Source: Squalus acanthias | Taxonomy: Eukaryota | NCBI GenBank assembly: GCA_030390025.1 | Contig: CM059428.1 | Location: 68,820,001 to 68,884,000, forward strand | Direction: 5' to 3' | Length of the DNA stretch: 64,000 nucleotides | Shown here: piece after piece, positions 31,646 to 62,210 of the stretch | Numbering within the stretch: the stretch's first letter is position 1 | Layout: every line of letters begins with the position of its first letter | Translations under genes and position numbers: made by a program | Notes under the pieces: generated by a model | What the model was told of the DNA's origin: nothing | Seen by the model: the letters and a program-made list of their open reading frames with translations, nothing else | Databases searched by the model: none

Positions 31646-33098
31646 GCAAGCACTCAGTAAGCAGAAAGGGTAAAAGTGCTGATCCCCCTTGCTGTCAGGA
31701 ACTAAGAGGCGAATTTTCTGTCCTGCCTTCACGCGGTAAGTAAAGTTAACTCTATAAAGTGAAAAATACCTGTTGGAAAACGTTTACGCTACACTTTGGT
31801 AGAGGAGCTGAGAGAACGTGACTAACGCCTACCTGCGGAACAAAGTGGTTGAAGTGCTTCAGGGCTCATTTTTTCCTCAGACCAACACTGTAGAGTTTCC
31901 GAGAAACATGTCTATAAAGGGGGTTTGTATAAGAAAAGCAACAGCAACAACAAAGAAATTGGGTTTTAGCAGGAAATGTGTAGTTTAGCAAACGGTGTTG
32001 AAGTGCGCAACAGCCAGGGCACATGGACTGGTACTGCAAGAGGCGAACGCATTTACTTCGAATTGCGTAAATATACCAAATTACAATATAGCGCCACGTT
32101 TAAATATTGTATGTACTAATCCTTACTGAATTCCACCATTTCCAATAACCAGAGATTTAGAAATATGTTTATTCAACGTCCGACTTTATAAGTTTGCGCA
32201 ACTTGATTGCCTGTCGTAAATCCAAGCTGCTAGACTTCCATCTGAAGGAATGGTGCAAAGTTGTACAGATTAGGCCAAACTTATTGCTTTCAGTGAGAGT
32301 TTTGGACTAAAACGATGATAAACGGAAGTATTCGAAACAATTTAATTCACAGGACAACAGACGCAACAGAAATACTTATCTGAGAGGCCAAAGTCCAGGA
32401 AAGTTACTATAGAAACTTTATTTTAACTTCCAGTCAGTTTTAAAAACAAATACAAAAGCTCATCACGAATTTCTTAAACTGCCAGTCTTTTAGGCTTTAT
32501 ATTTATCCTTTGTCACAAAAAACATACACTGACGCTGCGCTAAGAGCCACTTATTGGAGTTCGTGCAAAGTCATACAAAGGCACAGCATAGACATACAGT
32601 TCAAAGTCGCAATATCCTTCACAAAATTCACTGCTCACTAATAACACAGAATAGGTAGCATCTCAGTGATTTAACACTACGATATCAATTACAGAGGACG
32701 ATGGTCTGAAATTAAATACGTATTGCAAGCTTGGAGCTATTTTGACATTTAGCAACATTAACACATACATACACATTTTTTTGCAGAGTGCAACACATAA
32801 TTACATTTTTACTGGACGATTTTATACAGTTACTTCAAGTAACACCGCTTGTGTAAATATAAATAAGTTAAAACAGCTATAATTCACAAGTCTATCCTAC
32901 TCCTAGACAATATACTGTAAGCAGATTACTTGTACAGGCAACAGTACGATCAGAAAACAGACTAACGATTCAAAGATTGGAATACAGCAACATGGAAATG
33001 ATTTTCTTCATAGAAGTAACACGGGAAAAGAGTTTTGGAAGTCAGTACTGTATTGACATTATGCTAATTGGTCAGCTACTGCCCAGCACTTCTATTGA

Positions 33099-40300: not shown

Positions 40301-42739
40301 CGCTTTCCTAACCAATACAGATTATACAAAATAGTAACATTTAAACACGCATTTAATCCACTCACCTCATTCTCCCGAAATAAAACAATGTGAAATTGTG
40401 AAATGCGACGCCGTGATTCAAGATGGCAACCCACCTGGCACTTAATATAATTATTGGTATGCTCATCTCTCGTTAACAAGTTGTCGCTTTTTAAACTACA
40501 ACTAGTGCAAGGAAGCATTATAAATCTTTCAATTACTTTGTAGTAACTGTAACACCTTCCAAAGCCGCAATGTATCCTTGAAGTGTTTAAATGATCGAAT
40601 GTTTTATTTGCAGGCTCTGGTTATTCATAGTTGTATTTTTAAGAGATTAAAATAAGCCTGCAATATTTTACCACCACAGAACGGGCCTGTCCAGTAGACT
40701 CTCGGTTAATTGACAACACTGCTTCTTGTTACACATTTGAAACTTCAGGGTTAATTCAAACTCTTCGTTAAATTCGAATTCACGTTTCTTTCGTTCTGAC
40801 ACCAGTAAGAAAAAATCTAGAAAAGCTCTCTTTGACATCTTGAATATAGGTTATTATTACAGTTTAAGAATATAATTAAGGAGACTTCGTAAATTTACAG
40901 CGAACGGATTCAATATCTCTCCGTTTTATCAACAATCACAAACTGACTTTTAAATCTAATTTTCTATTTCTAACCATAAACACGCTCGTATTTTATCTTC
41001 TAAGTTTTGCATCAATATTAATTATTTACTAACGATCAAAGAGGGCAAAATAACTAATTGTGGGGATGTATTGCAGAGGTACACATATTCCGCTCAAAGA
41101 CTTTACATATTCTTAGTACTATAGGGAGCGCACAGTGCACAGTGGTGGGGGTTATCATTTTTCTGAGCGCAGTTCAAAGCTCATACGTACAGCCGTTTTA
41201 AATTTAAACAATTAATTTAATGTAAACGCGCTCTAAATGTCACTTTAATCGAGTTCAGCACATTTAGGTATTATGTAAGCAAAATGTTGATTACTGGCCT
41301 AGTCCACAAAACAACTCAAGGAACGGTTAATTTGAGAACGCAACTCAACCATTTAATCAGCAACACATGACCAGAAGAGACGCTATGCAGCATCAACGCA
41401 AGTTTGTCCACACTCCAAACACACGGTGGCAGCAACGAGTCCAAAAAGGTTAGCAAATATCAATATCCACGCATACACACACACACACACATTTTCAGTC
41501 AGACAAGACTAACTGTCTCGGTGTCAGAAAGACAACCTCCGCGTTAAGTAAAAACAATAACAGACAAATCTGCATGCTCACACCCGCAATACGATGTCTT
41601 TGAACATTTCTCATTCTTGAACAGCATCAGCACAGGAATAAACCACAAATAATTAGGGCTAACGCCTCTGAGGTAAACGTTAGCAGTCTTTAATGTGCAA
41701 CGCGCATTAGATTGCTATCAGATAATTTTCCAAGAAAATAATAAAAATATTTTTTAAATACATAGCATCTTAAACGAAAATTATGTGTTGTAAAAACGAC
41801 GATTCAAAAGAAAGTAATCACTTGTTCAGTGAAAGATAGTCGTCGCCATCGCTGCAAAGGGCAGATTATTTATTTGCAACTGAAATAAGTGTTTTTTTCA
41901 TCCTCCATAAAAATCTGCAAACGCCTGTACTAAAATGAGACACATCCTCAGCATTCCCGCTGTATGACATTTAAAAACTCGAGCAAAGAATGCGTTTTGC
42001 TTCTTTACATTTGTTCCTTATGCAAAACACTTTGAACCAACAAGCCGGCTGTTGATCAAATCAACCAGAACGTACGACGTCAAAGCATTATTCACACTCT
42101 TTAAAAACAAATATTTCAAAAATTCAAATTCATGAAAGCTGCCCGTGAAAACGGTCAAATTATTTTAAATAAATGCATAACAAATGCAACATTTCGAGTT
42201 AATACATTCCGAAGGTGGGCGGCATTTTTGAATCATAGCCTTCAACTTTGACAAATTAAACATCTTTAAAATGCAGATTTTACAATCATTTGTTTAAAAG
42301 GTAATTTTTTATTTTTGCAGAATTGCAAAGCTGAAAATGACGAGTGGGCCTTACCTTGTTGCTGAGTCTATTTCCCGGCCTGTCTACCCCGGGTTCTGCA
42401 CAGGCCGTGTGTAGTGTTTGTAGAGCCCGTGCTAGTTTGACAGCTGTCCGTTCGGCTCTATCCCAGGCCAATGGCTCTCGCATTCCGCCAGCGGCGTTTG
42501 GTGACGACTTGCAGGAAACTGCCCTGCGGACCAGAGCCGGCGCTTTTTAATCCAATGCTCCACCTTCCGTGGAGGAATTTGTAGCTGCCAGCCATGAGAT
42601 CTGTGCTGAAAGCTTGGATTCATTGAAGCTCCATGGGCAATAATCACTGCGCTGGGAAGGGGAAAAAAGAACAAAATATGCGTTGAAAAAAGCCTGCAAG
42701 CTCTCACATCCGAACCAAGACGCGCTTAGCACAAGAATG

Positions 42740-42920: not shown

Positions 42921-44342
42921 GACGCCATTTTTAACAAAGAGACAAGTTAAAATTGTGAAATTATTAAAGATTTTTTCCACGGTTTTAAACATGAATTTCC
43001 AGTTTCTGAAGTCTCATTATCCTGATAATAATATCCGGTTGCAATTTGCAGGGTTTTTTTTAACAGAAGTCAGTGTTGTTTCTGCATCCAGGCTGTTATT
43101 GTAACGGATCGAGTCGGTTTTACGTATAATCGCATCTGTTCTATCGATATTTTCTTTCTAGTTTTCTCTTTTTTTTTGATTATGCTGTAGTTAAAAATGG
43201 ACATAAACTCGCTCATATTGTGTAATCTAGCACCAAGATACAGTGCCGCACTGCATACATAAAATATAAAAGATGCGCCTGGTCGAAATTTCGTTCAAAG
43301 CTTGGCGATGACAGAACGACTCGGCTTTTTTTTCCATTTCATATATATGTTTTTACTGAATCTGAATACCACACTGGACTATGCTCTCACCTTTTCCACT
43401 TCTCTTAAACTGCTCTCAAATTGAATTATGGGCACGATTAGGAATCGGATCCGGATTGTTTAGTGGGAACTTATGCCCATCTTCGTCCCAATTCGAATCT
43501 ATTACGTTTGGATATTACCTTGCTTTAAAACATGCAATAATCTGGTCAATTATAATAAAAATTGCGCAATTTTAACAATCGATCTTTCTTATATTCGGTT
43601 GTAATTAGTATAAAGGTTGCCTATTTAGTGTAGAAAAACTATGTATCAATTTGTATATTAAAAATCAGATTAGAAGACACTGAAGGGGCTGCGGTGTATA
43701 AAGAATTATGTATTACTTTTGAAATAGTTTATATTTAATTGCTGTTAATATTGATGTAACGTGTGTCTTTATACGAGTCTTGTACCCACTCATTTGGTGG
43801 TACGTGTTTGGCTTAGACAAGAAAGCGAGACCGTGTTTATTCAAGCACCGTTTAATGTTTCTGATTTTTGTTCTCCTACAGAGATTCCATTCAAAGTATA
43901 CATGTCTGGAACGAATATATATATTTTAAATAGATTGCACCTTAAACCTTTAACATCGGTTATTATTTAACAACACATACACAGATTACAAAGCAAACTT
44001 TCGATTGACAGATACCACACCGAATATGGACCCACAATATATTCAGTCGACGATGCAGTTCGGGTTTTCTATTATTACATTTGGTTATTAGATATTTTTA
44101 TTTTATAATTTAAACAGTACACATGTATAAGACAACTGATACAACACACTTAAAGAAACACGGTTACATCATTCAGTAATACATGGTTTCTTTGCAATCT
44201 TTAGCAAGTATATATTTAATGCCACAGATCAAAAAGTAATAATGCAATTTCCCCCTTCTAATACGACTTTTTTGCTTTTTACGGCATAGTCTTTAAGCAC
44301 AATGCGAAAGGATTCCATTCGCCTCAAACGTAAACCGTCATC

Positions 44343-45419
44343 TAGGTAGTTTTCACTATTTTCGTATTATAAAGTGGCTATATACGCACCTCATTAAAAA
44401 ACATACATCAGAATATATTTTACATTTTTACTCCCATATTATGGTACTGTTATAAGTGCGAAAAGTCAAGACTCCGAGAACAACACTCTCTGTCTAGAAA
44501 CGAATTTTAAATTAAAACATTTAGGTAGTTTCCATAGACGTGCAAGATGTCCACTATTGTGGATTAGGTAGTTGTATTTCATTGCTATGTGAAAACAGAG
44601 AACTTCTTCATTCCGTTAATCGAACGGTACAACTCTGAACTAAGAGACACACTCAGAGAACAATTAAGAAAGAATGTAGAAAATAATAACAACAAAGAAT
44701 TGAACAGAAATAAATTATTTTACTCGTCGAGTTAGCTTTCTGTCAGTTTTTGCAATACATGGTAGAGTGGCTCAAATACTTGATTTCTGATTGGACTGGA
44801 AATGAGCATCTATTATCACCGCATTTTTTATTCTGTGAATAGTAAACAGAAATACTTTAAAATCTATGAAGAAGACACGTTAGCAGAGGTAAAATAAGTT
44901 TGAGAAATAGCTCAGTGCATGAGATCTATCTTATATCACATAGTGGTATAGTGAGTTTTACATTCCATAAATTACAACAATGGTTACATTTTGTTTCCTC
45001 GGCTAACATTGTTCCTTTCGTTCTATTATTGGGAGACCCAGAATCCGAATCCAATTCCCTTCAATTTACTAACACAGAACAAGGGTTCCGAATTTCAATC
45101 CCTTTCATTTTATTATTGCGAAAGAGAATCTCAATCCAACTAGGGAAAACAAGCATTCCAAATTTTGTGACGACTGCAGACAAAGGTTCTAAATCCATCA
45201 GCTTTCACTTTATTACTGAAAGCAGGGATTCTGAACCCAATTCCTACTATTTTTTACTAATGCCCGATAAAGATTCTGAATTTTTTTTGACTGAAACTAA
45301 ATCAGAGAACTTTAAATTCTAAAGGCATGATTTGGGAAGAGGTTATTAAACATATAGGTAGTATTATGAGTGCTAATGCACAGCATCTCTGTAACAGTCC
45401 ACTATTGTGGCTAGGTAGT
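44343..45419 (-). promoter_or_regulatory. Five 8mer miR-196 target sites downstream of the HoxA7 stop (3' UTR)
   Basis: Plus-strand TAGGTAGT (mRNA ACUACCUA) at 44343, 44522, 44565, 45355 and 45412. HoxA7 is an established miR-196 target. Confidence 0.85.
45012..45320. repeat. Degenerate ~42-bp tandem repeat (about 6-7 copies) in the HoxA7 3' UTR
   Basis: Recurring units like ttcc-tttcattttattactg...gattc(t/c)gaatccaa, read by eye. Confidence 0.7.
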
Positions 45420-45488
45420 CAAATGTCATCGTTAGCTGTTGAAGAACAACTTTGTATATTAGCATAGTTCAAGATTCAGCTGAGAATC

Positions 45489-45776
<288 letters not shown>

Positions 45777-46686: not shown

Positions 46687-47080
46687 CTGCATTCCTCATC
46701 CAGGGGTAAATCCGGAAATTGCTCTCTGCTTGAGGGTGCACGTTTGTCTGATCCAATTTTTCGCAACCCTGTTTGCTCAGATCGCTGCAAAGCACTGGAA
46801 TGTTCTGGTCTAAGGCAGAGCAGCGCAGGTTGTAGGATTCTGAATTTAGGTTATAACCTGTGTTGTACATGGAAGGGCCGTGATAGATTGCACTGTTAAC
46901 ATTGTACAGCCCGGCCATCGGGGCTGGGAAGGCGCTGGCGCCCGCTCCATAGCTCGATCTCTGTGAGTTGGTAGCAAAGGCGCAAGAAGTTGCTTCTGTA
47001 AAGCCACTCGCGTTCTGGAAAACGGATGTCCCCGCCGTATATTTGGGAAAAAGAGCATTCACATAATACGACGAACTCAT
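46687..47080 (-). CDS. HOXA7: HoxA7 exon 1
   Basis: ATG at 47080 gives MSSSYYVNALFPKYTAGTSVFQN..., hexapeptide IYPWMR; donor GCAG|gtatgg at 46686. Joined CDS is 627 nt (208 aa). Confidence 0.97.
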
Positions 47081-54098: not shown

Positions 54099-54722
54099 TA
54101 GGTAGTTACTAGTTATACATATAGGTAGTTTTAAACCAAATCTTATACTTTTCTTTGCACCACAACACCGATAAATACAAAGTGTCTGAGAACGTCATTC
54201 GTGCTTTTATCACAACAGACAAGAGTATCGTGTAGCATTATGCTTAGCGCTGCTCTTTGAAATAAAACTTATATTAGCATTCTATGCAATTCAGTTTCAT
54301 ACAATTTCTGAAGAACAACACAATCGTCATGCACCCCGGGCAAGGCCGTTACTCAGTCTCACAAAGACAGCATAAAGCCCGGAGTTTCTACAAGTTAATT
54401 CACAGTGAAAATAATACAATATATGTTCCAAGTTCACCACGAAAATAACATTTCATATGCACTACACAGCCTGTTATCTTTATATTAAACATCCTGAGTT
54501 AAATTGAGATTTTTCTTTTGTTTGTTTACACGATCTTTACTCAGACACCGCCCAAGCACAGAGGCCCAGTCACAGAGATAATCACCACAACAGACACCGA
54601 TTCAAGTATATAGGCAGCCTCGTTTGCTGCATGTAAAACAAGTAAATATTAAACTAATACAGTATTACTGAATTACTGTCCACACAGAGTAGCGGTGGAT
54701 TAAGAGAAGGTAGTTTTCATGT
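54099..54722 (-). promoter_or_regulatory. miR-196 target sites in the HoxA9 3' UTR
   Basis: 8mers TAGGTAGT at 54099 and 54122, and a 7mer with extended match AGGTAGTTT(T)CATGT at 54708-54722. Candidate AATAAA at 53814-53819. Confidence 0.8.
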
Positions 54723-54962
54723 AAAGTAAGGTAGATTCCGTAGCCACAGACTTAACCTTGCCGTAAATGTCTCCCTCTTTGGTTCCCAACTAACAAGAGT
54801 ATCAGTCTTTTTTTCCCACCATATGTAGTCCAGAACTGGCATAGGAATATTTTGTGCTAATGACATGACAAAATGTTCACATAGTCTTTCTGAAGCAGGG
54901 CCTATTTCGATAGTAATTGTGAATTTAGTCCTTTTCTTTCCTCAAAAATATTCTCCTTCGTG

Positions 54963-62126: not shown

Positions 62127-62210
62127 AACTGCAGTAATTCAGGCAGTTTCGTGTTGTAGAGATAGACTTGAGCCCCAACAACATGAAACTACCTAAATCA
62201 CACATCAGTT
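62127..62210 (-). ncRNA. MIR196: miR-196 precursor hairpin at the HoxA (miR-196b-orthologous) locus
   Basis: Mature TAGGTAGTTTCATGTTGTTGGG at 62195-62174 pairs with 3' arm CTACAACACGAAACTGCCTGA; it lies between HoxA9 and HoxA10. Confidence 0.97.

Follow-up and report, generated by a model that had tools for sequence, protein, structure and literature searches.

The HoxA7 3' UTR of Squalus acanthias is, judging from its sites and from the repression known in mammals, a multi-site miR-196 target, and we tentatively read it as a known target that also carries, at the 3' edge of a miRNA site, a plausible, unproven RNA accessory element. What is new here is that the predicted stem arms found next to HoxA7 sites recur beside a miR-196 site of HoxA9. 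The analysis covered 64,000 nucleotides of contig CM059428.1, the whole of which we call the window. By controlling central Hox genes, miR-196 contributes to the trunk body plan; its sites are generally regarded as seed matches and nothing more. If our reading is true, a flanking element present in two Hox genes would offer a natural, easily mutated test of tuning from the 3' side of the seed, and miRNA site clusters would be seen to grow through the copying of small cassettes, between paralogues as well. Should the repeated sequence prove a relic, it would remain a record of how the HoxA7 UTR gained its sites.

The HoxA7 locus and its miR-196 sites

The window contains homeoboxes of Hox3, 4, 5, 6, 7 and 9, all on the minus strand, and no Hox8 homeobox was found in the 64 kb. 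Its A4, A5 and A6 introns measure 353, 466 and 207 nt and are thus nearer to those of skate and horn shark (347-349, 469-473 and 202 nt) than to those of elephant shark (456, 460 and 224 nt; PMC2746220, Table 1), from which we infer an elasmobranch-type HoxA cluster. The gene at 47080-45489, whose stop codon ends at 45489 on the minus strand, encodes an exon 1 protein that is best matched by named Hox-A7 proteins (74 hits among 77 candidates). An assembly gap of 162 N occupies 1647-1808, near HoxA3. In an Rfam search of the window the mir-196 precursor was the sole match, and no cis-regulatory family reached its gathering score. In the mature miR-196 encoded in this HoxA cluster, position 12 is A, in agreement with the miR-196a probe given in PMC3335871; the human miR-196b mimic listed in PMC7780118 has C.

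Downstream of the HoxA7 stop there are five 8mer miR-196 sites (Table 1), arranged as twin copies of TAGGTAGT at 45355/45412 and 44522/44565, with a fifth copy at 44343. On the strand opposite to Hox sense, the sole miR-196 8mer of the window is the one inside the mir-196 precursor. The initial annotation was right both in naming the gene HoxA7 and in recognising miR-196 sites, which had already been described: PMC2746220, citing Yekta 2004 for the site family, reports four Hoxa7 sites for horn shark and five for little skate, so the site cluster itself is not new. The fifth skate site is placed at the start of the UTR, a position stated in that text for skate only (PMC2746220), and the counterpart of site 1 may be missing in horn shark. 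Mammalian HOXA7 is reported to be repressed via miR-196 (PMC6080909, PMC2148072), and 12 of 13 tested sites are reported as repressed, the failing one going unnamed in the text consulted (PMC6080909).

Two further 8mers lie in the HoxA9 3' UTR as a twin (54099-54133) spaced 23 nt apart and without a stem, one of them having 19/21 nt in common with HoxA7 site 2. A UGU stands 0-2 nt after the site in four of the seven 8mers, and likewise at one human site. Weaker 7mer-A1 matches in Hox sense occur at 32652, 14322, 13238 and 1541, the first of these some 440 nt downstream of the HoxA5 stop.

Table 1. Window positions of the features discussed, with the basis or context of each assignment
Feature	Position	Strand	Basis or context
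HoxA7 exon 1 (coding)	46687..47080	-	ORF and splice donor; best named matches Hox-A7 proteins, 60-68% identity
HoxA7 exon 2 (homeobox) to stop codon	45489..45721	-	translation, acceptor
Proximal twin-site block	45345..45450	-	seeds and alignment
miR-196 8mer site 1 (ACUACCUA)	45412..45419	-	1 nt before proximal 14-mer
14-mer, proximal copy	45397..45410	-	predicted CCAC-AAUA-GUGG stem-loop plus AC; ends in GGACU
miR-196 8mer site 2	45355..45362	-	49 nt after site 1
Five degenerate copies of ~44-nt unit	45012..45290	.	self-alignment 83 nt, 66%, E 1.3e-4
Distal twin-site block	44511..44600	-	seeds and alignment
miR-196 8mer site 3	44565..44572	-	2 nt before distal 14-mer
14-mer, distal copy	44549..44562	-	U-A pair lengthens predicted stem to 5 bp; ends in GGACA
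miR-196 8mer site 4	44522..44529	-	35 nt after site 3
miR-196 8mer site 5, single	44343..44350	-	outside the range of the initial annotation
HoxA9 3' UTR stem arms UAAUCCAC ... GUGGACA, 11-nt loop	54677..54702	-	found by eye
HoxA9 miR-196 7mer-m8 site	54707..54722	-	8 nt before stem; 7-nt match to miRNA centre
mir-196 precursor, cognate microRNA	62131..62204	-	Rfam RF00256, 78.6 bits

Twin-site blocks and the 14-mer between their seeds

An old local duplication of a single block is the most likely origin of the two twin-site blocks. The 14-mer GTCCACTATTGTGG is present in both as identical copies, with no third copy elsewhere in the window at up to two mismatches. It was the sole exact non-seed repeat of 14 nt in 40/40 tiles of 1583 nt, the others being 9-13 nt long, and a repeat of its length arose in 23/1000 dinucleotide shuffles of the UTR. 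With the seeds held in place, the alignment score of the two blocks, a region picked by eye, was reached by 18/5000 shuffles; with both the seeds and the 14-mer held, it was reached by 967/5000, so that the evidence for duplication is essentially the 14-mer and its position. Outside the seeds the blocks agree in 50/72 columns, and the aligned segments in 17/27, 23/34 and 9/10. The initial annotation had described two related copies of about 90-105 bp produced by module duplication: the twin seeds, the identical 14-mer and a collinear likeness above chance bear this out and make duplication plausible, but likeness along the full length of the copies did not hold up. The 'aaacat(a/t)' flank given in that description is matched equally well by the HoxA9 site at 54113-54133 (19/21 nt) and is therefore no marker of a HoxA7 block duplication. 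Two other accounts of the blocks were rejected. Pairing of the miRNA 3' region as the cause of the upstream likeness found only 5-nt matches, equalled in 217 and 300 of 1000 shuffles, and a distal block left over from a lost Hox8 gene is at odds with the Hox7-type gene that it follows and with the place of Hox8, which would lie on the other side.

Between the blocks, five degenerate copies of a unit of about 44 nt are laid out as three copies, a gap and two copies, with a mean column identity of 69%; a search for a perfect tandem array returned 0 rows. This separate array means that local duplication does occur in the HoxA7 UTR. Two of its copies carry a sense AAUAAA (at 45214 and 45114), and three such hexamers lie between the two blocks, the third at 44832, so short isoforms could be without the distal block; alternative polyadenylation at these putative signals could thereby remove the distal three miR-196 sites.

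The first reading of the DNA had the 14-mer unchanged in both copies at 1-2 nt from a seed, and our search confirmed it; a CCAC/GUGG stem with an AAUA loop, likewise proposed there, is predicted in both copies with pair probabilities of 0.82-0.99 at three flank sizes. Such folding was matched by only 8/3000 GC-matched 14-mers of the window, in which a 4-bp hairpin of any kind is formed by 369 of 12,444 14-mers. The blocks as a whole fold no better than their shuffles (z -0.33 and -0.29), and none of the five stem pairs varies in the three sequences, which show no covariation. Opening the seed beside the 14-mer costs 0.2-1.8 kcal/mol, with no gain over shuffled 14-mers (fraction as open 0.44-0.51 for the proximal and 0.08-0.43 for the distal copy; 150 shuffles), and we rejected the hairpin as an opener of the site because the seed is no more accessible than it is next to shuffled 14-mers.

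DRACH is an m6A-type consensus word, and the 1389-nt A7 stretch contains 24 such words, whereas the only GGACH words in it are those of the two 14-mer copies. GGACU at 45400 and GGACA at 44552, and also GGACA at 54681 in HoxA9, are all DRACH words; for the A of GGAC(U/A), pairing is predicted in the distal copy and a free base in the proximal one. No AU-rich heptamer was found in the HoxA7 3' region, and UGUANAUA, the Pumilio consensus word, does not occur in 43300-45488.

Stem arms beside a HoxA9 site and a putative 3' arm in human HOXA7

An instance that the initial annotation had not seen lies in the HoxA9 3' UTR, where putative stem arms follow a 7mer-m8 site whose 7-nt match to the miRNA centre was equalled in 7/1000 shuffles; a miR-196 6mer is found nearby at 54729. 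The pattern of stem plus seed has three matches in the window, where 100 shuffles averaged 0.00. Of the 11 CCAC...GTGG stems that the window contains, these three lie beside a seed, all with the same orientation relative to it; five of the eight strong UTR sites have no CCAC/GUGG stem. Under Markov backgrounds, and with the CCAC/GUGG stem of the initial annotation as the pattern set beforehand, the chance of finding the 8-nt arms within 12 nt downstream of any of the six other strong sites is 0.007-0.008, and that for CCAC plus GTGGAC 0.0003-0.0004, or twice as much if either side is allowed, figures that are optimistic because the HoxA9 instance was found by eye. Three pairs of the HoxA9 stem are predicted with probabilities of 0.93-0.98 at flanks of 40 and 70 nt, and of 0.06 at 100 nt. 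Over its whole length the HoxA9 region is not significantly similar to either HoxA7 block (270 and 1571 of 5000 shuffles). A fourth sense CCAC...GUGGAC (GTCCAC...GTGG) lies at 41406-41429, between HoxA7 and HoxA6, with no seed adjoining; its arms resemble those of HoxA9, and another GUGGAC follows about 100 nt further on.

For human HOXA7, a printed 40-mer has twin 8mers with a 10-nt spacer and no stem (PMC6080909). More of the human sequence can be read from probes against the antisense RNA HOXA-AS3, which crosses the HOXA7 3' end in human, opossum and Xenopus (PMC8330917); because of this overlap the probes should read in HOXA7 sense, an orientation that their overlap with the 40-mer supports. 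They contain four 8mers, three with a visible 3' flank, and the stem is present in none of these three (PMC8330917, supplementary file 4). One probe, placed after the coding end and ahead of the first seed that can be seen, retains GTGGACTG; in front of this stand a TTTT loop and two inner pairs, and what remains of the 5' arm, along with any seed before it, falls beyond the probe edge. The next probe has a AATACTACCTA site, as in the proximal block, by eye (PMC8330917, supplementary file 4). From this order, compared by eye and with no statistic attached, the first of these probes probably represents the orthologous spot. As it keeps the 3' arm and not the loop, the 14-mer as such is not pan-vertebrate, although conservation that wide is possible for the 3' arm. 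Neither HoxA9 nor the human probe has the AAUA loop, which leaves the arms as the shared unit, and an accessory element that does not depend on its loop gains support from the HoxA9 instance.

A metagenome scan for the 14-mer with a seed found 0 loci, and one with an alignment of HoxA7 exon 1 (12 sequences, 11 of them picked from the 74 hits) gave 88 pattern hits, 0 of which were confirmed. The literal 14-mer was not found in the running text of the published papers searched. At the level of abstracts no paper on this duplication or stem came up, although published alignments may show the motif, and no relevant Hox UTR sequence was present in the supplements of PMC8062999, PMC4470032 and PMC3091776.

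Readings of the stem and comparison with known systems

In the reading we favour, selection would have kept, besides the seeds, a small RNA cassette immediately downstream of a seed, made of the CCAC/GUGG stem with its 3' arm running into GGAC(U/A) and a loop free to vary; HoxA7 has two occurrences of the arms of this cassette and HoxA9 has one. The stem is predicted to fold beside the seed without covering it, and the cassette would most likely assist the miR-196-loaded silencing complex. We prefer a mechanism in which a signal for decay or repression may be added at this spot by GGAC(U/A) at the foot of the stem, either as an m6A-type word or through a protein bound there. UGGACUG, which we take to be a seed match for miR-455-3p, could explain the proximal and the human copies, not the other two. 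A more far-reaching version appears unlikely to us: the 'seed plus stem-GUGGAC' cassette would be an undescribed miR-196 accessory element and might act as an m6A-sensitive switch where the Argonaute footprint ends on its 3' side. Early in jawed-vertebrate history it would have spread both inside the HoxA7 UTR and from one Hox paralogue to another, to stay intact in cartilaginous fishes and erode in mammals.

The repeat might instead be a neutral relic, left after duplication of the blocks or the copying of a short tract from one UTR to another, with the seeds alone under selection and the 14-mer as the longest survivor, which we consider somewhat unlikely. Uniform decay to 62-71% identity left a run of at least 14 nt in 24-160 of 2000 simulations (six settings), and milder decay, to 75-81% identity, did so in 258-729 of 2000 (four settings), so that the invariance of the 14-mer taken alone is only borderline. 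A relic also accords with the observed identity between the blocks, the chance-level remainder of the block alignment, the lack of an accessibility effect and of covariation, and the slow change of chondrichthyan HoxA non-coding DNA described in PMC2746220. However, the run that survived would also have to be a strong hairpin, to recur beside a HoxA9 seed and to match the 3' arm of the human probe.

It is improbable, in our estimate, that the constraint acts off the HoxA7 mRNA, on a DNA element (a transcription-factor site within a cluster enhancer) or an antisense transcript copied together with the seeds. The 14-mer is near-palindromic, matching its own reverse strand with three mismatches, HOXA-AS3 spans the HOXA7 3' end (PMC8330917), and the copy of the arms between HoxA7 and HoxA6 has no seed, all of which would suit such a constraint; yet arms spaced 4 nt apart in one gene and 11 nt in the other are more readily explained by a stem than by a dimer site of fixed spacing, and the three seed-linked copies share a single orientation to the seed.

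Two silencing complexes cooperate at site distances of about 8-40 nt, and the hairpin might serve as a structural spacer that brings the 49-nt and 35-nt gaps of the twin seeds into this range. It does lie between the seeds in both A7 blocks with a high predicted folding probability, and synergy of multiple miR-196 sites has been reported on Hoxc8 (PMC8062999), but we rate this possibility as very low: any stem would serve, yet the sequence was kept, the HoxA9 stem lies 3' of both seed matches, and the printed human twin has a short, stemless spacer (PMC6080909). Least probable of all is the initial proposal of a protein that reads the invariant 14-mer with its AAUA loop, for which Musashi is the nearest candidate, since AUAGU fits its (G/A)U1-3AGU motif and the loop is the same in both A7 copies, but Musashi favours a single-stranded UAG (PMC6502878) where the G and U here are predicted to be paired (unpaired probability at most 0.01), its motif occurs 7 times against 6.7 expected, and the loop is changed in HoxA9 and in the human probe.

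With its multiple 8mers after the HoxA7 stop and its cognate miRNA in the same cluster, the shark locus resembles the published miR-196/HoxA7 targets (PMC2746220, PMC6080909), whereas the block duplication, the flanking stem and the HoxA9 counterpart go unmentioned in the available text of these two papers. The regulation of p27 by Pumilio and miR-221-222 likewise involves local RNA structure near a miRNA site and a proposed tuning of repression, but in that case the site is masked by the structure and freed through a Pumilio element (PMC8882679), unlike the shark stem, which leaves the seed free and is accompanied by no UGUANAUA. With 0 copies of this word in the HoxA7 3' region and a seed that is cheap to open and not hidden, we rejected a switch of the Pumilio type. 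The AUAGU of both A7 14-mers (at 45405 and 44557) recalls a Musashi binding element, from which it differs in being half paired, not enriched and absent from the HoxA9 loop. The likeness that matches our preferred reading is to m6A DRACH sites and m6A structural switches: each of the three instances closes with GGAC(U/A) at the base of a weak predicted stem, within a 3' UTR.
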